Source: Botryllus schlosseri (lineage: Eukaryota). Taken from it: a DNA stretch of 64,000 nt. The stretch spans positions 5,086,001 through 5,150,000 of the forward strand of contig CM119371.1 of NCBI GenBank assembly GCA_051294905.1. Direction: 5' to 3'. This document shows positions 5,640 through 44,130 of the stretch, one piece after another. The notes beneath the pieces are model-generated. The model was not told the DNA's origin. It ran no database searches and saw only the letters and a list, made by a program, of their open reading frames with translations. Position 1 is the stretch's first letter, and each line of letters starts with the position of its first letter. Position numbers and translations under genes: made by a program.

Positions 5640-8600
5640 ATCTAGCTTATGGCGCGTTTTCAAAAGCACAGAGCATTTATTAGAACGGCTTTACAGCTCC
5701 TGTTTGGGCATGAAATGAGCTGGAAAAGCTGCACCCGGACACTTGTATGCAGCGATGCGTGTTTTTCAGCAGCGTATAGAGTAGCCTTGGACTTTTTATG
5801 AGGCCGTATAGATGAAAAGCTTACCAATCCAAAGTTTACCTGTTATATGTTTGCAAAGTAAAAGAAATTTTCCACCCCTTGTCGTAAGGGCAAGTGCTAT
5901 TATCACATAGTTGTATCAGCTTATTGTTTTACATGACAGGTGCCGCTAACACAGTAACCTGTCGGTGACAAGCCAGAGGCGTCCTATATATACAGTGACG
6001 AATCACCAGACTTCCATATGGCTGAACTTGAGGCTCAACTCCAGAAATTGGTCGATACCAATCTGACATCGAAGTCTGCTTTATATATGGGTGCGTATTT
6101 ATATTCTAATCACTACTTGCCCTTATTCTGAATAGACTTCCTCTTTGAAATGTAGGATACTTCTACGGGTCAGATACGTGATATATTAAAATTCCAATCC
6201 CGTAATGGCTCAAATCAATTCATGAGTGTTGCGACAGCTGAAGAATATCAGAAATTCTTTGAACAATGCCAGTTTGTAATATGATATTGATGCATATTTG
6301 TTCCATGTGTCGAAATTCAAATCGGTGCAAATCTCAAATTAAAACCGGTACAAATCAAAGCTATTAGGATTTCCATATCCATATCAAGTTCAACATGTAT
6401 CAGAAAATGACGCATAGAATATTCAAATTCAAAAAGGGTTGTTGAAATCCACAGTGATTAAGAGGTCCGTGTTTTCCAATCAGGCAGATATCATAGATCC
6501 AACTCACAACTCTAGCCAGTATGTGACACAACCAAAAAATGGTTAGCATTAGCTATATATTGCATTTCTGTACATCAAAACTGAGTTTGATTCAACAGAT
6601 GAGGCAGAAGATCCTGCAGCCTGCACCTGTGCATTGGATTGGTGGATCTGACAGATAAAGCAGAATTCAGTATGGCTATTTTTGTATCGTCATTATATAT
6701 GGATAAAAGGAGCTTACAATCTATTTCGATAGATACATCAACGGTCAAAGTAGTCAGCGCGACTACTCGAATAGAAGTAGAGGTAACGTTATACATTTCT
6801 ACTCGTTTGCAAGCAAAAGTTGCAATTTCCAGGACATGTCAAACTACTACATGCAGTAATAGAAGGTGGTCAAAGTAGTCGGTAATGCCACTCAAGTACA
6901 AGTAACATCAATCCAAGTACGACTAATTACAAGTAAATGTAGCGATTTCAAAGGCAGATCAAGACTAATTTATGTGGAAATAGATGGTAGCCAAAGTAGT
7001 CAGCAATGATACTTTAGTAGAACTATCCTAGTAAGTTACTACTTCATTACTGCAGTAGCAATTTCAAAGAGGATGCAAAATTAAGGATGTAAGTCCAAGT
7101 AGATGTAACACTGTAAATTTCAACTCAATTATAAGTAAAAGTGTCGATTTCGCTTATTGACTGGCTATGACATATTAAATACTTGTGCGGCTGTGCGCAC
7201 ATCACACTAGGACAACTATATAATTCTAGGTGTTTAATTAAACTAATCTAATCAAAATGGTAATCCATTTCTTATCTTATTATCGTGTGTTACAAGGCAA
7301 GCTCGATGTACAGGCATTTGTCATTCATGTGCTCATATGGGCTAACTTTTTGTTGGATTTCTTTCCACTTCACAATTGAATTCGATTTCTCAGTTTTTGT
7401 AAATCAAGTATGTCTAATTGTAATTCCAGAAAAGCTGTAGCCAGCATTCTACTTCTAATCCGTTAGATTTTCTAGGTGTCAAACTCTTGCGCCGACCGCC
7501 TTGTACAGATTAATACCTACTAATACTGAACGCGAATTAAAAACTAGGAATTGTGTCAATATGGAACTGCTTCCATATTATATCATACAACTCTGTCTTG
7601 TGTAATACATCTTGGCGTTTCACTGCTCAGGGATGTAGGTAAGTCTTTCAAAATTGTCCTGAATAAAGCAGGCCTTCGAAATTTCTGTAAAATATTCATT
7701 AAATTGAAATCAATTTCAATATTATCCGTACTATAGCAGGCATTCAAATATCTGCAGAATAATGATTTCCTTCAAATTTCAGGTTGTCAACTATGTGATA
7801 ACAACAACCGTGTACTTGTCAACGATAGCACGTGAAGACTTCTGTACGCAAACAACGAATAATGGCGGAGTCCTACTACACCCTCCAACAGTACCCGAGT
7901 ACTCTAAACAAGAAAGTAACCTAGCTCAAGTGTGTCCACAACTACATGTTCGAGCATTTGATCAAGGTTATTCGAATCATGTTATACTACTTGAATTGAA
8001 AATTTATGAAAGGGCTTGACTATTAACTAAAGTGTGACTTGACATTAAAATTGTTCAAACGACTTGATTTGACTCGACTCTAGTCTACATTTGTGTGACT
8101 TTACTTGAAAATTTATTAACTGACTCGAATACAGTCCGAATTTGCGTGATTTGACTTGAAAAATTTATGAAATGGCTTTACTGAAGTGTAGACTTCTAGT
8201 AGAGTAGCATAACTGACTACCTCAGCCACATATCTTCACTTCAAGTAGTTTGTGTCGTTGAAATAGTTACTTCGACTTGCAGTTGATTCGAAATTTATGA
8301 GGTTACTTCTTCTGTAACATCACCGACTGCCACGACGTAACTTCTACTTGCATAGAAACACTGATTAATTTGAAGACCCCCCTCCAACAAAATTGTAACT
8401 CCGTATAAATATTTGCCATTGCTTATCGTTTAAGTGGATGCTTTTACTTGCAGTTGATTTTAAATTTACAAGGTCCCTTAGGGATAGTTTGATCACCTCT
8501 TCTATTGTTTTAATGTTTGTTTTCGTCATCCAGGACCACACCAAAGTGATTCTGTTTCCTATGGTGGGAACCCGTGATTTATATCGACCGAGAACGTAAC

Positions 8601-32693: not shown

Positions 32694-34235
32694 TATCGTG
32701 AAATCAAATACAAATCAATCTGCAAAACAAAATATTTTCATTGACAGACGGACTGACAAAAATAACTTATTTTGTCAAATTTCACTGGCCAGTTGATAAA
32801 ATGCTAGGATTTTTACAAAATATTTGTAACAACCTTAATAACTTGCAGTTGGTAGCCAAGAAGACGGGAAATAGAACTAATGACACAACAAACTAACTAG
32901 ATTGAATTACGAAGCAGCTCGTAAATTTGTATATTATCAGAATCAGATCGATTTTCCACAAGAACATCGGTACAAGTTTGAAATGGGAGAATATTTGTCC
33001 CCAAAACCCACCTATTGGCTACACCACTGTTCGTAGTGATGACTCTAGGCTAGCAATGGCTGCAACTGCAAGAACATCACACAACAGAACATCGTAATCA
33101 CGATTCACACCAAACGACGACACGCCTTTTCTAGTGGTTCGGCAACTAAGTATAACTAATCCCTTCACTAAATCTTCAACTAGAACTAGAACTAGTCACA
33201 AAACCATCCATTATAGTTGATTGTCAACTAACTAATTGATAGTTTGCATAAGTCTACATAGAAGTGATAGAACCTCTACGTCCTCTAGTAAAACAAACAG
33301 ACAAAAATAGAATAGCATACCAGATATTTAGCAATGAAGAAACCGTGATTTATAAGTACTGTACCAATACCAAAGACATCAACGATAATGCAACAAAGAA
33401 TGCAAAACTAACCTGTATAAGTTCCTGAACTGCCCTTGAACAAACGAGCAAAGAACGACGTATGATTCTGATATCCCGTTGTGTAGTCCAGCTCCAGAGA
33501 TATAATTTGATATTCCACAACTTGCTAATCACACGGCGTGTGCGAGAATGGTCACCATTCTACGACACCCTTAATATGTGTTATCCAAACAGAAGCACAG
33601 CACTGACATATTACTTTTTTTTACCAATAAAAAATCTAATCAGAGAGGGGGAGTCCCCGATCAACATTGTCGCCGAAGTCAACGAACTGTGAACGTATAG
33701 AGTAGAATGATATTTTATTTATTTTGTCGATCAAGCAACACAGAATGTGTTGTTAACAAGCTTCTATGATGTCGAATAAGATTTTTTTCCAATTACTAAA
33801 CTAGCATTATATCAGCAGTTAGTAACCTTTACTGACATGGCGACCGATTAACGCAAATCTCCAAGCCTTCTGCGGCCCATAATATTCCTCCAAAAATATG
33901 GTAGGGTTACCATACGTCCTCTTTATTGACTTTATTTCAAAGTGTCCTCGAAGGACGTCCAAATGTCCTCTTTTTTTGAGAAATTGTCCTCTGTTTTGAA
34001 AATTCTGGCTAAAAATAGGTTTAAATTCAACTGAAATATAGCAAATTAGTGCCCAAGAAACGTTCCGGGTGTTGTTTTGTGAATTGAGCGGGAAAGTTGA
34101 CCTCTTCTTCATTTTTTTTAGTCAACCAACGGAGAATACGACAAAAGGAGTCGGGTCGGAAAAATGACTTTTTTAGCGCAGAGCGAATGTTTGTAGTTGT
34201 ATAATTGTATATCTGACTCCAAGATGTATTCTTGA

Positions 34236-37200
34236 TGTGCAACTTTGCATTTATTCATAGGTTAAATACCGTAATAAATGATCAAACTGAAATACAAAAG
34301 AACAGTTGCATCGACTAGCCTAATCCCTATTGCTCCAACAACTCACAAGACGTGGGTGCTAATACATACATGCACGCACGTCGCACAATCACAACAACAA
34401 GACTAGATCGCTCATGCGTTTAGGGAAACTACTAGAGAGAGATTGTAGTAAGAGATAATCACACATCCCCCCCAACTCCTAACGAAATCAACGAGCATTG
34501 AGTGAGGAGTTTAAAATACAGCGTGTAGAGAACGTCCAACCAAATACTCTAATGGCGATTGAAGCGGGAATCAACATAAACTTTGTGCCCCAATAACGTA
34601 GTCCTTGTGCCATACTGGCGGGGTAACATTTCTGCCTGAGCGCTGGCGTCTATCGTCAGACGGTGCGGGTACACTAGTGTCGTCGATCGGTACTTCAACT
34701 GGTAGATGATCTTCTGCACTCGATTCGGTGGATCTCAGCAAGCCAGGGTCTACCTCATTCGACTGTCCACTTAGAGCGGGTGGCGAAACGACTAGAGGTG
34801 ACGTAGCTGTGCCGGGAGACGAGACCGTTGGCTGAAAATATGTGTGCTTTTGGTTCGGAAAGTACGGCTCAATCTTGCGTAGAAATTTCCTGTTACGTAG
34901 CGTCAATCTGGCGGAACCGTCCACTTTCACGAGGTACTGGTCATGGTCTCGGCACTGAACCACAGTGCCGGTTCTGTCCCAGCGAAGGGGATAACGACCG
35001 TTTTGGTTTTGAATGCGACAGACATCACCTTCAAGAAGTGGTGATAATGGCTTAGTGTTCAACGACAGAGATTCCAGCTGCTTCGCAAATCTGGTACGTA
35101 ACGTGTGCTCGCGACTCTGCCAGAGGTTCCTCCATAATGGCCTGATGTTGCGCTGGGTGAAAACTGGGACCCATGCTTTGATCGGCAACGCATCTTTCAA
35201 AGTCCTGCCAAATACTATTTCTGCAGGGGAGAGTCCATTCGCGGGGTCGGGGCAATTGCGAAACTGTAGCAATGCCCGAGTAATTGCATCGGTCCGGATG
35301 CTGCCATCCTGCGAAATGTTGCCGAGAAGGAGTCGTTTCATCGATTTCACCGCAGCCTCCGCGCGACCATTTGACCTGGAGTGGTAGGCTGACGACAGCC
35401 TGTGGCGCACCCCCCATTTTCGAAAAAATTCCCGAGTGCTGTGCGCAGCAAATTCGGGTCCCCCGTCACTGCTAAGTTCTTCGGCCACACCAAACGTGCC
35501 GAAGTAACTTCGTAATGCATCTTGGAGTCCGAGGGCTCCAGACGTTTGGCCACCGTGCTTCACATGGAATATCTCTGGCCAGTTGCTGAAGCGGTCAACG
35601 ACGACTAAATAGTGGTGGCCTGCGGCGGTGCAATAATCAGCGGCAACAGCTTGGAAAGGGTAGGTCGGTATGAATGGCTCGGCCGGAGGCATGTATGCTT
35701 GACTCGGTGCCATTTTACTGCAGTTGTCACAACGTGCTCGTGTACGTGCTATACACTCAGTCATCCCAGGCCAAAATACTGTGGCCTGCGCCCTCTGTGA
35801 CATGGCAGCAGTCCCTTGGTGTGCCGAGTGTAAGATTTCACAGATAACCCCTCGCAGCGGCGGGGGAACGACAATCCGGTCATTATACATGACAACATCG
35901 TCTACGATCGAAAGGTCGTCGCGGTACCGCCAATATGATTGTAGTTGAAAAGGCAGTTTGTCCGATTTGTCTGGGAATCCTGATATGATGTGATTTTTTA
36001 ACTCACTGAGAATAGGATCGTATGCAGTACTGCGCTTTACATCGTCCCAGGAGACAACTTCAATGGCATTCAATGATGCTCGGGAGGCAGCCACGATGCT
36101 GATTTCAATCAGATTGGTGTCCTCATGAGAAGCCACGATACTGTCGCAGTGATCCAACGGCATGTCATCCACTGGAGTCGAGGAAGCAGGGTGCCTGGAG
36201 AACGCATCAGATGCAGGAATGAGTTTGCCAGGAACATGGACGACACGGAAGCGCCATGACAATGTGCGCTGCTTCAGGCGAAAAATCCTTGTGTTAGTAA
36301 TTTCATCAAGGGAGCGGTCCCCAAAGATTTTTACCAAAGGTTTGTGGTCAGTGCAGATGATAAGATCGTCACATCCGAGGGTGAAGAACTTCGTATCTTC
36401 TAATGCCCATGCGATTCCAAGCGCCTCGCCCTCTATAGAACAATATCGTTGTTCGGCGGATCGGAGGAACCTTGAGCCAGCGAGAGTGATTTTCCACCCA
36501 TGGACGCAACAGTCAGGGGTCAAGGAAACGCATTTGCAGTACTTCTGTCGCAGCCAGTAGCCAATGCCGGACCTTGACCAGTCCGGGGTCAGGCACGTTC
36601 TTCTAGTGGGGTCAAAGATACGTACTCCATCTTTGATTGCGTTGATGAGCTCGAGCTTGGAGTTCGCGAATGCATCATCAAGTTCGGAAGTCCAGCAAAA
36701 TGGAGTTTTCACGCTTAGTAACGGTTTGAATGGTGCCATAATGGTAGAAAGCCGGCCATAATGAGAAACCTGGTTGACCAGCCCAAACCATGCACGTATA
36801 TCTGCTATTTTTGTTGGCCGTGGGAAGCACTGTATTGCTTCCAAGTATTTGGGCAGAGGGCGAACATTCTCGGCAGTAATTTCGAAGCCGGCGAACTCGA
36901 TATGTCTGCGGCAGAACTGGAACTTGGAGGCGTTTAGGATGATACCTTCACGGCCCATTAATTCTAGATAGTCAATCATCCTCCACCAGTGCGTGGCAAG
37001 ATCATCGTCCCAGAGGACCGTGTCGTCCACGCACTTCGTTTTGCGTGGTGTGTCGGCAATGATGCTGTCGTAGCGGTAAGCGTACCCGTCGCCACTGGCC
37101 AGGTATCCCTGCGGGGCCACTCTATACCGATATCTCCCGAACTCAGTGATGAATGTCAGAAGGTGTCTATCCTCTTCACGCACGGGCACGGAATGGTAGC

Positions 37201-39436
37201 CATTCCAGGCATCTGTGACAGACCTGTAAGTGTTTGGAGGTATCGAGCGTGCTTGTTTGAAAGGAGGCACAACATGGTGTGTTTCTCGAGAGCAAAAGCG
37301 GTTCAGCGATTGGAAGTCAACAACTCTCCTCGGGCTGCCATCTGCCTTGCGCACCCATATGGCCCTATGACACCAGGTCGTTGGCGTGTTCGGCTCCACT
37401 TTTTCAATCACCCCCAATTTTACGTCCGCCTCCAACTGCTTCTCGATTTCCTCTTTCCAATGAAGTGGAATGGGAGCCGGTGTGTGGACTGCAGTCGGTG
37501 TCGCCGACGGATCGATATGAATGGAAATAGGCGGCCCAGTCATGGTTGGTAGTGGGCTGTGTTTGCACTTGTTGAATGTGGATGATGCATACCTCTCAAG
37601 TAACCACTGCTTCATTTTATCCACATTCTCCGCACAAGGCTGGAATGGCAGCTGCTGGGGTCGTGAAGGAGGCGTGGACCTCCGTGGGCAGCTACATGTT
37701 TGATGTGGGTTACCCTCAAGGGTTGACTCTCGTGTCGCGTGGAGTGCTGCTGCCCCAATCTGAGGAAAATCGGGCCCAATGATGCCCAACTTCTGCATGG
37801 CATCTCGGCTAAGGTAGAAGAGTTTCGTAGAATCCGTAATGTATACCATCTCAGCGGTTTCTATGACATCGCCAGAAACTGCTGCACCCGAAAGTCGCAG
37901 AAACACAGCGCCCAGGATGTGGATACACTCATCATTAGCTGCAACCAAGCGTTTCTTTACCGGGATGAGATGCTGGTCCTTGAAGCCGCATGCTCGAAAC
38001 AGTTTCAATCCCATCAAGGATGATTGTGCACCAGTGTCTGATATCGCCTTTACCTTCTTGGGCGATATTTTGGGACGCTGGATATTGAACTGGGCATAAT
38101 CGGCTTGCCGGGTGGAGACCAAAAGATCAATGGTCGGTTGTGCCTTGCAGTCTTTCAGCAACCATCCGTATGTGCCATCAAATATGTGATGGTCTAATAT
38201 GACTTCCGAAGCATGAGATTCTACAGTGTTTTTGGTACGGTTTGATACTGAAGCGATATTGATACTAGAAGCGGTGCCAGTACTAGGTGTCTCCGATTGG
38301 TTGCTTTGTCTCCAGCAGGCTAGACATTGTTTAAACTCGCGCAACCTCGGCTTACCAAACTTCCCATGCAAGAATTTATACTTCTTCATGACACTGCCAC
38401 ATTTGCCACATTTGATGACTTGAGAGAGATCGGGCAACGGCTTGCCAGTAGAAGTGCTGGCCGCAACGCTAGATTCATGCTGATTTCTCAATGTGGGGGA
38501 GGTGGCACGTAGAGCTAATTCCTTGTTTTCAATAATCTGGACAGTTTCGTCTAGCGATTTTGCATCGAGATTTGCAACACTAAGGACTTGCCGCTGAACC
38601 TCATCATCAGCCAGGCCGGCGATGACAATATGCTTAACAATTCTATCAGAAAAGTCATTGACTTGGGTGCAGCCAGGCTTCGTGCAATTCATTTGAAATG
38701 AGCAAATTCTTGCAGACGCTTTCACCTCGGCTAGAAATGCACTGAAGGACTGTCCTTGATCCTGCTGGGCCGAAAATAGAGCAACGGTGCGCATGCTTGT
38801 GGCGATTTTGACAACTGCTAGAGATTCAATAGCTTTCAGCATATCACCTTCACTGACCTGATTGAAGTCACAGACTTGTTTGAAGAGGTCGTTCGATAAA
38901 GTTATCTCGCAGCATTGCCAAAGGTGGCTCTTGATTAGCTTGTCGGGTATCTCGGTCCCTTTTTTAAAATCGTCCCATTTTCTGAGGAATATTTGCCATT
39001 CCTCGGCAGTGGAGCCACGCGAAATGACGGGTCGTTCCATGACAGGTGGTCTCGAACGCGAGACATGAGGACATGTTGTGTGGATTGTAGCATGGATATT
39101 GAGCTGTGTGACGGCGCCGGCCGTATCTTCGGATTCAGTCTCATAATTGCAGTCTTGGATTGGGCAAGAAAGCTTCGGCATGGTTAATCCGTATTAAGTT
39201 TGATCATGTGCAACTTTGCATTTATTCATAGGTTAAATACCGTAATAAATGATCAAACTGAAATACAAAAGAACAGTTGCATCGACTAGCCTAATCCCTA
39301 TTGCTCCAACAACTCACAAGACGTGGGTGCTAATACATACATGCACGCACGTCGCACAATCACAACAACAAGACTAGATCGCTCATGCGTTTAGGGAAAC
39401 TACTAGAGAGAGATTGTAGTAAGAGATAATCACACA
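34236..39436 (-). mobile_element. Intact Ty3/Gypsy LTR retrotransposon (Mag-like features), very recent insertion
   Basis: Identical 230-bp TG...CA LTRs at 34236-34465 and 39207-39436; 5-bp TSD CTTGA (34231-34235, 39437-39441); PPT GGAGTTGGGGGGGA next to the 3' LTR; a single uninterrupted gag-pol ORF. Confidence 0.97.
34571..39181 (-). CDS. Gag-Pol polyprotein (Gag, protease, RT, RNase H, integrase), 1536 aa
   Basis: Protease DTGAQSS; RT motifs VDFQSLN, TDAWNGYH, APQGY, CVDD; RNase H PDWSRSGIG, IEGEAL, TDHKPL; integrase LHSAHQG..CDNC, ADY, SDGGPEF, SNGRAE. Domain order PR-RT-RH-IN is the Gypsy order. Confidence 0.97.
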   Translation of the reverse strand: MPKLSCPIQDCNYETESEDTAGAVTQLNIHATIHTTCPHVSRSRPPVMERPVISRGSTAEEWQIFLRKWDDFKKGTEIPDKLIKSHLWQCCEITLSNDLFKQVCDFNQVSEGDMLKAIESLAVVKIATSMRTVALFSAQQDQGQSFSAFLAEVKASARICSFQMNCTKPGCTQVNDFSDRIVKHIVIAGLADDEVQRQVLSVANLDAKSLDETVQIIENKELALRATSPTLRNQHESSVAASTSTGKPLPDLSQVIKCGKCGSVMKKYKFLHGKFGKPRLREFKQCLACWRQSNQSETPSTGTASSINIASVSNRTKNTVESHASEVILDHHIFDGTYGWLLKDCKAQPTIDLLVSTRQADYAQFNIQRPKISPKKVKAISDTGAQSSLMGLKLFRACGFKDQHLIPVKKRLVAANDECIHILGAVFLRLSGAAVSGDVIETAEMVYITDSTKLFYLSRDAMQKLGIIGPDFPQIGAAALHATRESTLEGNPHQTCSCPRRSTPPSRPQQLPFQPCAENVDKMKQWLLERYASSTFNKCKHSPLPTMTGPPISIHIDPSATPTAVHTPAPIPLHWKEEIEKQLEADVKLGVIEKVEPNTPTTWCHRAIWVRKADGSPRRVVDFQSLNRFCSRETHHVVPPFKQARSIPPNTYRSVTDAWNGYHSVPVREEDRHLLTFITEFGRYRYRVAPQGYLASGDGYAYRYDSIIADTPRKTKCVDDTVLWDDDLATHWWRMIDYLELMGREGIILNASKFQFCRRHIEFAGFEITAENVRPLPKYLEAIQCFPRPTKIADIRAWFGLVNQVSHYGRLSTIMAPFKPLLSVKTPFCWTSELDDAFANSKLELINAIKDGVRIFDPTRRTCLTPDWSRSGIGYWLRQKYCKCVSLTPDCCVHGWKITLAGSRFLRSAEQRYCSIEGEALGIAWALEDTKFFTLGCDDLIICTDHKPLVKIFGDRSLDEITNTRIFRLKQRTLSWRFRVVHVPGKLIPASDAFSRHPASSTPVDDMPLDHCDSIVASHEDTNLIEISIVAASRASLNAIEVVSWDDVKRSTAYDPILSELKNHIISGFPDKSDKLPFQLQSYWRYRDDLSIVDDVVMYNDRIVVPPPLRGVICEILHSAHQGTAAMSQRAQATVFWPGMTECIARTRARCDNCSKMAPSQAYMPPAEPFIPTYPFQAVAADYCTAAGHHYLVVVDRFSNWPEIFHVKHGGQTSGALGLQDALRSYFGTFGVAEELSSDGGPEFAAHSTREFFRKWGVRHRLSSAYHSRSNGRAEAAVKSMKRLLLGNISQDGSIRTDAITRALLQFRNCPDPANGLSPAEIVFGRTLKDALPIKAWVPVFTQRNIRPLWRNLWQSREHTLRTRFAKQLESLSLNTKPLSPLLEGDVCRIQNQNGRYPLRWDRTGTVVQCRDHDQYLVKVDGSARLTLRNRKFLRKIEPYFPNQKHTYFQPTVSSPGTATSPLVVSPPALSGQSNEVDPGLLRSTESSAEDHLPVEVPIDDTSVPAPSDDRRQRSGRNVTPPVWHKDYVIGAQSLC

Positions 39437-41473
39437 CTTGACTCCAAGAAGGTTGCGTTTACAATTCGCTGCGTGTTTCTTCTTTCGTTCGACGAACCGG
39501 CGTAACCGCGCCGTACGGCCTTGTTGGCTGACGTACCACGAAGCCTGTCTATTGGACACGTATTCGATGGATCACACTGACGAATATATTTGTTTCCGTC
39601 TCCACGACTTGTAACTTTATTGAATCACGTACGACAAAGTAACGGACTTCCGAATCAGCGAAATATCATGAATTGAATGACCGTCTCTCATAGCCACGAG
39701 AGAGTACATATGCACACATTGTTATCTACGTTCACACGACAAAATATACGACTCACAAAAGTCTTATCAGGTTTCAGTTCAGGGAATTACGTAAGGTCTA
39801 CCAACTCCTTATCGACTAATATTTAAATGGCGTTATACCAATATACTCCGTTAAAAGTTCCCCCTTCCCACCAAAATAACTTGGTGTAAAAAAAACGAGT
39901 ATATTGGTCAAAATCTCAAACCTAGGGTCATACAACATATGGACTGGGGCTAATCATAGGGACTGGAGACAGGAAACGATTTTATATGCAGGGGCAAAAG
40001 TAAACTAAAGAAACGAAATACCATACAAGCGTGGCAGCGTGGCAAGCGTGTCAAGCGTGGCAAGCGGAAACCCTATTTTACATAACCATCTCGGAACGAC
40101 TCGCAATATCATCGTTCCGTCCTACTGGCAACTGAAACTCAGATCAACAATAGTTAGCGCTCAAACAAAACAAAGAAATAAAATACATAATTAAACCAGC
40201 ACAAAAGCGTTACAACCGTGACATTACAGATCACTTCGCATGCACTAACAACAAATTAATGAAAATGTATAATAAAGAGCAACAAAAACTAGAAAATGCA
40301 ATGCAATTCACAGACGTAACCAGTCTAAACCAGTCTATATGCACTGACGAATACCATCTACGTGTATGCAAGGTCAACACCATAATTCATCCAGCAATCA
40401 TGCTTCAAAACCCACAGAACATGCCATTCACCGTCATCAATCACTTCTTCTACTTTCTCATTATTACTGTCAACCCGTCCAGCGGGCGCAGCAATCATTC
40501 CTACCAAATCCGTGTTGTCTGTACACAACAACAGAGGGCTTATAACAATCCAACAACCATTCTACAATCTGCAGTGACCATCTCAAACATGACGCAAGCG
40601 ACTACAAACGGGCCTACACGAGACTAACATATATTACTACAACGCATACTTCAGCAACGAGCTTCGGTGATCCCACGTTACATTCTACGACGGGGAGTCA
40701 CAACATGATGCAGCAATCCTGCATTTACATAATATATCAATGCGCAAATCACGCTTTTCACTACGCATATCTTTACTTTACGCGATTCAACAATCGATGA
40801 AGCAGCAATCCTGCATTTAAGCAACATATTAATGCACAAGGCATTTCTCATCACGCATATCTTTATTCTACGCGATTTAATGCAACACGTAATCATTCAA
40901 ATGTCTTGGTCTAACAATTCGTCTCCCTCTGGACGTATATCTTGGACTTGACTCGGTGATATTTCTGCAATCACGAGATATCACGTCGGGGTCACCATTT
41001 AACGCAGAGCGAATGTTTGTAGTTGTATAATTGTATATCTGACTCCAAGATGTATTCTTGACTCCAAGAAGGTTGCGTTTACAATTCGCTGCGTGTTTCT
41101 TCTTTCGTTCGACGAACCGGCGTAACCGCGCCGTACGGCCTTGTTGGCTGACGTACCACGAAGCCTGTCTATTGGACACGTATTCGATGGATCACACTGA
41201 CGAATATATTTGTTTCCGTCTCCACGACTTGTAACTTTATTGAATCACGTACGACAAAGTAACGGACTTCCGAATCAGCGAAATATCATGAATTGAATGA
41301 CCGTCTCTCATAGCCACGAGAGAGTACATGCACACATTGTTATCTACGTTCACACGACAAAATATACGACTCACAAAAGTCTTATCAGGTTTCAGTTCAG
41401 GGAATTACGTAAGGTCTACCAACTCCTTATCGACTAATATTTAAATGGCGTTATACCAATATACTCCGTTAAA

Positions 41474-44130
41474 TCAACCATCCACAAAGGCAACGCATAC
41501 TCCAACGCCGTCAAATCCGCCGGTCTCTACCAAATGATCACCGAGCCTACACGCATAACCGAAAAGTCAAGGACTTTGATCGACCACATATATACCAACT
41601 CGCGCGACATGGAAATCATTCCATTTGTCATTTCGGCAAAAATCAGTGACCACAACCATATTGGTTTTCTATCACAAGAACAACAAAGGACACCCCCCGA
41701 AACATATCACCTCTGCAGACGACGAGAGATAGTGGACGAAGAAGCGATCGATGATGCCGCATTCAATCAATTTAAAACATCAGCCATCCCCCACATCTCG
41801 GTAAACAACTTTGACGAAAAATTTGTTGAGTTTATGTCTGCTATCAAATCACTGCTGGAACAATTTGCACCTCTACAGCGCCTTTCGAGAAGTCAAAGAA
41901 AATTGAAGCGAAATCCGTGGATGACCACAAAGCTGATTCAACTTATCCGTAAAAGTAACCGGTGGCATAACCGAATAGACACCAAGAACTGCCCAGAACA
42001 TGAACGAGAAAGATTTCGACGTTTCAGGAATCGCACCGTGCATCTTATTTCCAAGGCAAAAGCAAAGTACAATGAGAGATTTTTCAACAGACACATAAAG
42101 GACACTCGAAAAACATGGTCAGGACTTAACTCTCTCCTACATCGAAAAAAAGGCCATAAATCTGTTTCGGAAATTGTGAATTCGGACACCGGAAACAAAC
42201 TTTCAGACCCGGCGGCCATCGCGAATCACTTCAATGAATATTTTTGTAACGTAGGCCCAAATATTGCTTCTTCTATTACAAAACCTGTGTCGGCCAGGTC
42301 AGAGGTGAGATCGATATCCCAGTCAATTGTGCTTGAACCTATACGACCAAATACGAAGTAGAAGTAGCCATCCACAAACTGAAATCGCACAAGGCCGACG
42401 GCTATGACCAAATCCCATCATGGTTTTTAAAAATGATAAGCCTGCATATCGCTCAATATATGGCCCATTTTTTCAACTTCATGATAGCAAATGGAGTCTA
42501 CCCAAGCTATTTAAAAAAAGCCAGAGTAGTCCCTGTACACAAAGCTGGGGATAGAACTAATGTCACCGACTACCGTCCGATATCCGTTCTCCCATGCATC
42601 GGGATTGTATTCGAAAAGTTGCTCCTCTCCCGCCTGTCCTCATTCCTCGCCAAAATGTCTGTCATTTCCCCTCAACAATTTGGCTTCCGAAACAAACACC
42701 AAACCGCTCATGCCCTCCTAACAGTGGCCGAACAGTACTATGATATCTCAGAGAAGCGAAATGTGGGATGTAGCATTTTTCTCGACCTAAAAAAAGCGTT
42801 TGACTGCGTAGATCATAAAATTCTCATCTCGAAATTGGCGCGTTACGGACTTCGGGGCCCACAACTTGAGCTCATGAAAAGTTACCTCACTGGACGCCAA
42901 CAAATGGTTGCGATCTCAGACACCTTGTCCTCTCCTCACCCGGTGACCTGTGGTGTGCCCCAGGGCTCAGTACTTGGACCGGTCCTTTTCACCTTATATG
43001 TCAACGACATTTTTGAAACCTCCTCATTGAACACCACACTGTTCGCTGATGATACTCACCTCCTCTCTTCCGCATCTTCGACGGCAGAGCTGGATGCCCT
43101 GACTGGTGACCAAATGCCCAAAGTCCATGAGTGGACGGCCCAGAACAACCTTTGCATAAACGCCTCGAAATCGCAATTGCTGACAGTAAATTCAAAAAAT
43201 AACCTAACCGTTAATATCGCTGGTCAGCCCGTTTCCAACACAGATAATGCCAAATATCTCGGAGTTTTACTGGACTCGAACATGTCCTGGAAGAGTCATA
43301 TTCAGTCCCTAGAAACTAAATTATCACCGAAGTGCGGCCTGTTCTACAGCCTTAAGCGCTTCATGCCAGCATGGGTTCTTCTGATACTCTTTACATCCTT
43401 AATCCAATCGAAGTTACATTATGGCATCCTCTGTTGGGGGGGCTGCCAGTAAAACTGCACTCAAGCCACTGCAGAAACTACAGCATAAAGTACTCCGAAT
43501 CATAGCTAGGGCCCCAAAGGGGCCTGGCTGCCCATCCAATAAGTCGCTGCTGAAGAGATTCGGCGTCCTAAACATAGAAGATATGCGGAAACTAGAAATC
43601 GCCAAGTTTATGTATCAGTTTCACTGCGGTCGTTGCCCCGAATATTTCAATGACTTCTTTACCTCTGAATCAAAAGCGCACAAGTACAACACACGCGCGT
43701 CCACGTCGTCCAAATATCATATGATCGACCGAAAAGATCATCGCTCCATCAAATATGCCGGACCTGATGTGTGGAACAGTATCCCGCCGGCCATCCGACA
43801 GTCGACGAGCATGTCCACATTCAAGTCGAAATACAAGCAATTACTACTAAATAAATACAGTCCATCCTCAAGATTACCGGACCACGACTGACCTATCGAT
43901 CTCGCTTCCCATGACATGCCGCCCTATTTCTTGTCGCATTCTTTTTCTATATCTTCTTTACTTTCATTCAGTGTGCATGCCTCCTCTTTACATCGCCTAG
44001 GCCAAGGTGGGTGTCAGATTCCATAGACTACTCCTTGTCGCTTCGACATCTTCCTGTCTTTTCATTGTATCGCATTTTTGTGGTGTATTGAACTGATAAA
44101 ATTGCTAATAAACCAATGATGATGATGATG
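41474..44130 (+). mobile_element. 5'-truncated CR1-group (CR1/L2/Crack-like) LINE; ORF2 broken by two frameshifts
   Basis: ORF pieces 41534-42361 (EN end: ITEPTR..LIDHIY..SDH, NPWMT), 42433-43452 (RT: YRPISVLP, QFGFR, DLKKAFD, GVPQGSVLGP, LFADD, KYLG) and 43421-43891 (C-terminus ..GPDVWNSIP). 3' UTR ends in AATAAA and a (GAT)n tail near 44130. Confidence 0.92.

Follow-up and report, generated by a model that had tools for sequence, protein, structure and literature searches.

The window analysed here is a stretch of 64,000 nucleotides (nt) of the Botryllus schlosseri genome (contig CM119371.1, positions 5,086,001 to 5,150,000). It contains a long terminal repeat (LTR) retrotransposon, placed on the minus strand because the plus strand carries the sense of a transfer RNA (tRNA), and an unrelated element nested within it. 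The outer element has a direct pair of LTRs, a primer-binding site (PBS) beside the 5' LTR and a polypurine tract beside the 3' LTR (Table 1). On the plus strand we read ATCACGTCGGGGTCACCA at 40980-40997, TCTGACTCCA at 41038-41047 and TGACTCCAAGAAGGTTGCGT at 41059-41078, exactly where an earlier reading of this DNA, made from the sequence only, had placed them. The first of these is the PBS. The other two form a tract that, judged by sequence comparison, is plainly a copy, antisense to the element, of nt 27-52 of its own primer tRNA-Trp, and that lies in the unique 5' region (U5) of the LTR of a Ty3/gypsy family.

We searched the host genome (495 Mb in 219 contigs) for the tRNA itself. The 3' 15-mer of tRNA-Trp occurs 128 times, and ARAGORN called tRNA-Trp(CCA) genes at two of the 29 loci scanned, both of 72 nt and identical to each other. 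These genes contain TCTGACTCCAGATCAGAAGGTTGCGT and end in ATCACGTCGGGGTCA; the tRNA-Trp stretch that the sequence-only reading had quoted is present in both. In standard numbering the first tract proper (41038-41047) equals nt 27-36, and comparison with the host genes upheld the claim that the second tract matches 20 nt with only GATC (G37-C40) skipped. The tRNA form of the tract stretch is found at 22 genomic sites. Sixteen of these 22 tRNA-Trp gene matches lie on a single contig (C15, 17.82-18.19 Mb), including a run of seven copies at 169-bp spacing; no tRNA genes were found in the window. The two tracts had been presented as separate regions of complementarity. Both are indeed complementary to tRNA-Trp, but they are not independent, being the units of a 19-nt tandem duplication. 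Beyond the second unit a degenerate, colinear continuation agrees with the tRNA at 11 of the first 19 positions (to about nt 71) and at 11 of 24 overall, with empirical P values of 0.002 (19 nt) and 0.019 (24 nt) for a length that was picked once the data had been seen. This segment (41079-41102) may be the remnant of a former PBS.

The match is well above background. The 20-mer of the tract has two matches in the window, one per LTR, where 100 shuffles led us to expect 0.00. Local alignment of U5 with nt 1-58 of tRNA-Trp scored 31-35 against a null of 14 ± 2, which none of 300 shuffles reached, and the controls, reversed tRNA-Trp, tRNA-Gln and tRNA-Asn, gave null scores against U5. The complementarity outside the PBS is directed, above chance, to the same tRNA that the PBS matches. 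No similarity to tRNA-Trp was found in the 40-nt spacer between tract and PBS (40998-41037). We also considered a repeat of the tract in the internal region near the PBS and rejected it: local alignments of that region with the LTR and the tRNA gave only matches of 7-16 nt (scores 24, 25 and 14, obtained without a shuffle control), none within the tract, and the internal region next to the PBS is the ordinary 3' portion of the family.

Table 1. Features of the outer element and the element nested in it (window coordinates; strand - is minus)
Feature	Position	Strand	Remarks
PBS	40980..40997	-	plus strand equals tRNA-Trp nt 59-76 including CCA, 18/18
5' LTR, 476 nt	40998..41473	-	repeat families D1, D3, D4
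U5, 211 nt, from poly(A) addition site to LTR end	40998..41208	-	from RNA reads
Unique 3' region (U3) and repeated region (R), undivided	41209..41473	-	from RNA read depth
Spacer between tract and PBS, 40 nt	40998..41037	-	without tRNA similarity
Tandem duplication, 19-nt units 41032-41050 and 41051-41069	41032..41069	-	yields both tracts; in one subfamily only
Tract unit 1	41038..41050	-	plus strand equals tRNA-Trp nt 27-36, then AGA
Tract unit 2	41059..41078	-	plus strand equals tRNA-Trp nt 29-36 and 41-52; element RNA is the complement
Degenerate colinear continuation	41079..41102	-	gapless against tRNA nt 53-76
Internal region, 1.1 kb	39856..40979	-	homologous to 3'-terminal region of family members
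Polypurine tract	39858..39872	-	GGTGGGAAGGGGGAA on the minus strand; directly 5' of 3' LTR; read directly
3' LTR, larger part	39437..39855	-	tract unit 2 at 39439-39458
3' LTR, remaining 64 nt	34172..34235	-	tract unit 1 at 34212-34221
Nested unrelated Ty3/gypsy element	34236..39436	-	splits 3' LTR exactly between its two tract units

To place the tract within the transcript, we aligned to the LTR two RNA runs of the same species label, X21 (3'-end-biased) and X23 (bulk), whose reads report on the family as a whole (likeness at least 92%). Poly(A) addition falls at plus-strand coordinate 41209 (75 reads in X21 and 6 in X23, with the T-run representing the minus-strand tail), 26 nt after an AATAAA that is the reverse complement of 41249-41254. 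The depth of X21 was 200-1450 over 41222-41480 versus 4-30 over U5. Therefore, U5 runs from 41208 to 40998 and includes the tract, which agrees with its assignment to U5 by the sequence-only reading. In the genomic RNA the tract is present once, 41-81 nt 5' of the PBS.

With 528 candidates in the host genome, the LTR family is abundant; the 40 candidates scored were 94-100% identical. Copies of about 6.8 kb contain a gag frame of 244 to about 300 amino acids, an in-frame TGA-CTA and a pol of 1140 amino acids, and the domains of pol in family member L063 follow the order reverse transcriptase (RT), RNase H and integrase. Because the long copies carry gag and pol with these domains, we assign the family to Ty3/gypsy. 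Its gag and pol are in the same frame, divided by TGA and then CTA (2588-2593 in L063 and 2635-2640 in L061); the TGA-CTA context favours stop-codon readthrough. All subfamilies examined carry the tract, the long gag-pol copies among them. LTRs with a single unit occur in L064, L066, L068, L080 and L081, and the unit reads TCTGACTCCAAGAAGGTTGCGT in the first three of these. For the TCTGACTCC forms, nt 27 is the first matching position.

The tract exists in two main central forms. A genome pattern anchored in the adjacent flank gave 270 matches, the first 100 of which were merged by eye into 74 places. Among these, 47 have CCAAGAAGG (6 of them as mutated or indel variants) and 27 have CCAGAAGG (11 of them mutated). 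The CCAGAAGG form is the tRNA sequence less exactly one AGA-TC unit in the AGA-TC-AGA repeat that spans G37, a skip of 5 nt, and the CCAAGAAGG form is the CCAGAAGG form with one additional A, which restores the pair with A41. As a larger share of its copies has decayed, the CCAGAAGG form looks like the older of the two, and probably is.

The window copy itself is a reduced member of this family. Its internal region has 77 matches of 76-100% identity that lie beside the 3' LTRs of further copies, one instance being inside L061. Because it matches the 3'-terminal part of family members, we regard the window copy, on the strength of its sequence, as a deletion derivative without gag-pol; the description of the element as non-autonomous was correct. 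The deletion junction (40969-40997) lies exactly at the PBS, where the internal region ends in AATCACGAGAT and a perfect 18-nt PBS begins with ATCACG. Such a junction is compatible with a plus-strand transfer to an internal microhomology in which the PBS was written anew from the tRNA. We set the start of the 5' LTR by comparing the flanks of 3' LTRs, and the LTR termini read TTTAACG...CGTTAAA instead of TG...CA. The two LTRs are 97-99% identical. No target-site duplication surrounds the outer element, as 34167-34171 and 41474-41478 differ, and the element may be a recombinant of two insertions. The nested element has identical LTRs of 231 nt (TGTG...CACA), a 5-bp target duplication (CTTGA) and one unbroken frame of 1540 amino acids that encodes RT, RNase H and integrase domains. 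Next to its 5' LTR the sequence does not start with TGG, and its primer is not obvious.

How did the family come to carry a piece of its primer? Four features of the match argue for a captured copy of the primer rather than contacts acquired base by base: it is to the primer's own tRNA, it starts sharply at nt 27, next to G26, its indel sits at G37 between direct AGA repeats, and a degenerate colinear similarity runs on through the T loop into the acceptor strand. These sequence features suggest that the tract originated as a reverse-transcribed copy of the mature primer tRNA that was later enclosed in U5. The sequence-only reading had compared the tract with the extended primer contacts of Ty1 and of retroviruses; the start at nt 27, the indel at G37 and the colinear tail point instead to a captured complementary DNA (cDNA).

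Such a copy could arise during reverse transcription. In tRNA-Trp of other organisms, G37 is 1-methylguanosine (m1G), and both m1G37 and N2,N2-dimethylguanosine at position 26 (m2,2G26) are methylated on the Watson-Crick face and stall reverse transcriptases. Human tRNA-Trp carries m2,2G26, according to excerpts of PMC9072684. Synthesis of plus-strand strong-stop DNA normally halts at m1A58 or m5Um54 of the primer, and when the stop sites of the tRNA are lost, plus-strand synthesis continues into the tRNA, as described in part of PMC8599865. We propose that RT, copying the mature primer tRNA in plus-strand strong-stop synthesis, would have read past position 58, slipped over G37 between AGA (36-38) and AGA (41-43), and halted at G26, which would set the start of the copy at nt 27. 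In the read-through product, the complement of nt 58 to 27 would have come to lie immediately 3' of the PBS. A subsequent rearrangement of the leader, or a move of priming to a downstream PBS, would then have enclosed the copy together with the former PBS in U5, where the former PBS would have decayed.

The leaders of other family members contain rearrangements of this general kind. Seventeen PBS contexts in the family comprise 3 perfect 18-mers in otherwise different leaders, 7 sites of 12-13 nt and 7 that are interrupted. Because the 3 perfect 18-mers sit in otherwise different leaders, tRNA-templated sequence, to judge by these alignments, does enter the family, and the raw material for a move of the PBS exists. 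In L066 (2860-2960, tRNA-sense coordinates) the LTR is followed by a perfect PBS of 18 nt, then by 21 nt that copy the U5 end and then by an older imperfect PBS. The leader of L063 contains, 141 nt in, a copy of the U5 end that is 22 nt long (7430-7460, tRNA-sense coordinates). Both look like footprints of aberrant strand transfer.

We then considered what a captured copy could do. Pairing between the element RNA and tRNA-Trp had been proposed in the sequence-only reading, and in the model calculations the predicted duplex is strong. With short segments and unmodified RNA parameters, and with the cost of unfolding the tRNA ignored, the predicted duplex energies were -35.4 kcal/mol for the single-unit tract, -31.0 kcal/mol for unit 2 and -17.9 kcal/mol for unit 1 of the window copy, and -36.3 kcal/mol for the 18-nt PBS, and the PBSs of long-frame copies (12-13 nt or interrupted) reached -25 to -28 kcal/mol. 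Short segments were used because RNAduplex runs on whole leaders gave meaningless long pairings. In cofolding, which models one contact at a time and not both, the minimum joined the tRNA to the tract in the L064 leader and to the PBS in the window leader with its 18-nt PBS. By these figures the tract duplex would be more stable than those of the short PBSs in long-frame copies, which makes a bipartite primer site plausible. The genomic RNA would hold tRNA-Trp at two places, a short PBS for the tRNA's 3' end and the tract, which would pair over 21-22 bp with the anticodon stem (5' strand), the anticodon, the variable loop and the T stem (again the 5' strand). The last of these (nt 49-52) would be freed once the PBS takes nt 64-76, and for this reason a two-site grip that aids unwinding is mechanically reasonable. 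Such a bipartite site would capture the primer and help to unwind it, and RT would displace the tract duplex after copying about 40 nt. From this modelled pairing we infer a possible role in primer unwinding or packaging.

Our tentative reading is that the captured copy of the primer tRNA serves as a second part of a bipartite primer site, and from the sequence and the modelled pairing we give it close to an even chance of being right. A more specific version is doubtful, although not far-fetched: that the family gained a second, thermodynamically dominant PBS by capturing primer-tRNA cDNA into U5, and that the copy also records the stop at G26 and the AGA/AGA jump over G37.

The alternative that survives best is that the tract is a neutral fossil, that is, captured cDNA of all or a fragment of the primer tRNA that serves no function and owes its perfect state solely to the youth of the family. 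This is a real possibility, if a step behind an even chance, and several of the observations that weigh against a second primer site also favour it. Among 31 non-redundant, top-scoring LTR copies of the window subfamily, a sample biased towards the window, the deviation from the column majority was 0.000 in tract unit 2, 0.010 in tract unit 1, 0.018 in the spacer, 0.001 in 41079-41102, 0.005 in the rest of U5 and 0.032 in R and U3. Of 456 windows of 20 nt, 33 were as invariant as the tract. The tract is family-wide yet, on the question raised in the sequence-only reading of whether it is more conserved than the rest of the LTR, indistinguishable from the rest of U5. The tract 18-mer has 133 exact LTR copies (155 genome matches less 22 tRNA genes), and the adjacent flank 18-mer is commoner, with 235 exact genomic copies, an excess that largely consists of the CCAGAAGG indel form. 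Diverged old copies (L067 and L072) are mutated within the tract, as they are in other sequence. Indels are tolerated in the centre of the tract (CCAGAAGG, CCAAGAAGG and CCAAGAAAGG) and at its 5' edge, where the L080 lineage lacks nt 27-28 of the match.

The age of the family and its relatives belong on the same side. Full-length RT matches within the family are 90-100% identical, with a few shorter, stop-containing fragments at 69-89%, and the RTs of the next families are at 37-38% identity; the family's LTRs are at least about 80% identical. In a family this young, a perfect tract may mean only that there has been too little time for change. These next families, the sister gypsy families A, B and D, share the tRNA-Trp PBS and, compared with shuffles, have no extra complementarity; the tract is therefore not a general requirement of tRNA-Trp priming. 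Matches to the D arm in the U5 of these families did not exceed shuffles and were set aside as chance. Families A (L006-L011, L020-L028) and B (L013, L023, L027, L029) have tandem leader repeats just 3' of the PBS in element sense, each of which includes an incomplete PBS-like motif that corresponds to tRNA nt 57-68 and lacks the acceptor end. In the metagenome and viral contigs searched, we found no cross-species relative: the 20-mer and 18-mer of the first tract form had 0 matches, and for the second form the 19-mer gave 6 matches in metagenome contigs and 1 in viral contigs, in unrelated contexts without an LTR flank and at about the chance level for collections this large.

Parts of the proposed origin are exposed as well. 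The modifications m1G37 and m2,2G26 are assumed for the host by analogy with other organisms. The similarity of the tail is modest and, as stated above, of a length chosen post hoc. The proposed route predicts that the 40-nt spacer is a duplicate of the older U5 end, and this prediction failed: the score was 8, the null was 10.3, and 1987 of 2000 shuffles did as well. To these come the simplifications of the duplex and cofold models.

Several of our observations nevertheless speak against a neutral fossil. If nt 27-76 entered jointly, 21-22 perfect positions beside a tail with 11 of 24 would be difficult to obtain without selection. A perfect tract next to a half-decayed tail is therefore not what uniform neutral decay of one copy would leave, and, provided that the similarity of the tail is genuine, it argues that selection either favoured the tract or disfavoured the former PBS. 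That the long-frame copies have short or interrupted PBSs is in line with compensation by a second site, and the most abundant young subfamily has duplicated the part complementary to the anticodon.

Two further explanations appear very improbable. One is that the tract stems from an unrelated tRNA-derived insertion, such as the head of a short interspersed element, a tRNA retro-pseudogene or a Helenus-like RNA polymerase III (Pol III) promoter, and involves tRNA-Trp by coincidence. LTRs with tRNA-like sequences do exist in the Helenus TRIMs (terminal-repeat retrotransposons in miniature) described in part of PMC10886601, and the window copy is likewise non-autonomous. The copy here, however, is antisense to the element and derives from the same tRNA as the primer, whereas the tRNA-like sequence of Helenus is reported, in the portion of PMC10886601 available, to be unrelated to the PBS. 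The long gag-pol copies carry the tract too, and among the first 100 matches listed for the 18-mer, whose flanks were inspected in part, all were tRNA genes or the gapless LTR form. A Pol III promoter unit was rejected: the best alignment covers only tRNA nt 27-58 and all that is present lies between nt 27 and about nt 71, with the 5' part and the A box absent and the B-box region degenerate.

The other, which we likewise consider to have very little chance, is that the tract is a target or decoy for small RNAs derived from tRNA-Trp, through which the host silences the element or the element titrates that silencing, rather than a dock for the full-length primer. Fragments of tRNA 3' ends are known to target PBS sequences of LTR elements (excerpts of PMC7472051 and PMC12853362). 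Silencing would give the element no benefit and would leave the retention of the tract unexplained, and the match spans the anticodon loop, the cut site of tRNA halves. Chance similarity, finally, is excluded for practical purposes by the 300 shuffles, the null control tRNAs and the expectation of zero 20-mer matches.

The nearest known system to the second primer site that we tentatively favour is Drosophila Gypsy, also a Ty3/gypsy element with a second site complementary to its primer tRNA. As described in part of Gabus et al. 2006 (PMC1635307), this site for tRNA-Lys,2 comprises 11 nt complementary to parts of the anticodon and T stems, is located near the 3' end of the genomic RNA and is dispensable for cDNA synthesis. 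The tract described here differs in its length of 21-22 nt, in its position in U5, 40 nt 5' of the PBS, in the inclusion of the anticodon and in its appearance as a tRNA copy. Among retroviruses, U5 of Rous sarcoma virus contacts the T-psi-C loop of tRNA-Trp, and this avian virus shares the primer with our family. In human immunodeficiency virus 1, contacts between an A-rich loop and the anticodon, and between the primer activation signal and the T arm, have been described (excerpts of PMC7793103, PMC1865047 and PMC3185550). The retroviral U5 and leader contacts resemble the tract in that sequence 5' of the PBS pairs with the anticodon or T arm, in the same strand topology, but they are 4-8 nt long and look as if acquired stepwise, unlike the single colinear block of 21-22 nt with a skip of 4-5 nt found here.

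Other systems share single aspects. The extended interactions of Ty1 and the 5'-3' bipartite PBS of Ty3, as given in parts of PMC1635307 and PMC5371799, likewise combine a short PBS with further complementarity to the same tRNA; in these sources, though, the boxes of Ty1 are found on the 3' side of the PBS, where they pair with the tRNA's T and D arms, and the second half of the Ty3 site is at the 3' end of the RNA. Helenus TRIMs have tRNA-derived sequence within their LTRs, and some insect members have a tRNA-Trp PBS (Kojima 2024, PMC10886601, in part). The Helenus sequence is a near-complete unit that has both an A and a B box and is interpreted as a Pol III promoter, for which the sections of PMC10886601 available report no PBS complementarity, whereas the copy in our family is partial. 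The half-tRNA priming of copia and Ty5 also uses complementarity to the anticodon arm of the tRNA, but there, according to the same part of PMC10886601, the complement of the anticodon arm is itself the PBS and abuts the LTR. We rejected a PBS of this type for the window element, as the tract lies 40 nt inside the LTR and a canonical 18-nt 3'-end PBS abuts it. In the full-text literature searched, with subscription journals and supplements outside its scope, we found no description of a primer-tRNA copy inside U5.

Contacts between primer and leader outside the PBS were already known, but these are short and of obscure origin. Here, a transcribed and abundant gypsy family of insect type carries a block of 21-22 nt copied from its primer, and it provides a concrete model for the birth of such sites. 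The family also offers a natural allelic series, with single, duplicated and edge-trimmed tracts, skips of 4 and 5 nt, and PBSs of 9-18 nt, that is suited to testing whether added complementarity to the primer aids initiation. Should the model be wrong, the tract would still be a useful marker of aberrant strand transfer in the family. If it is true, bipartite PBSs can arise in one step through capture of the primer, which would account for how the long-frame copies manage with PBSs of 9-13 nt.

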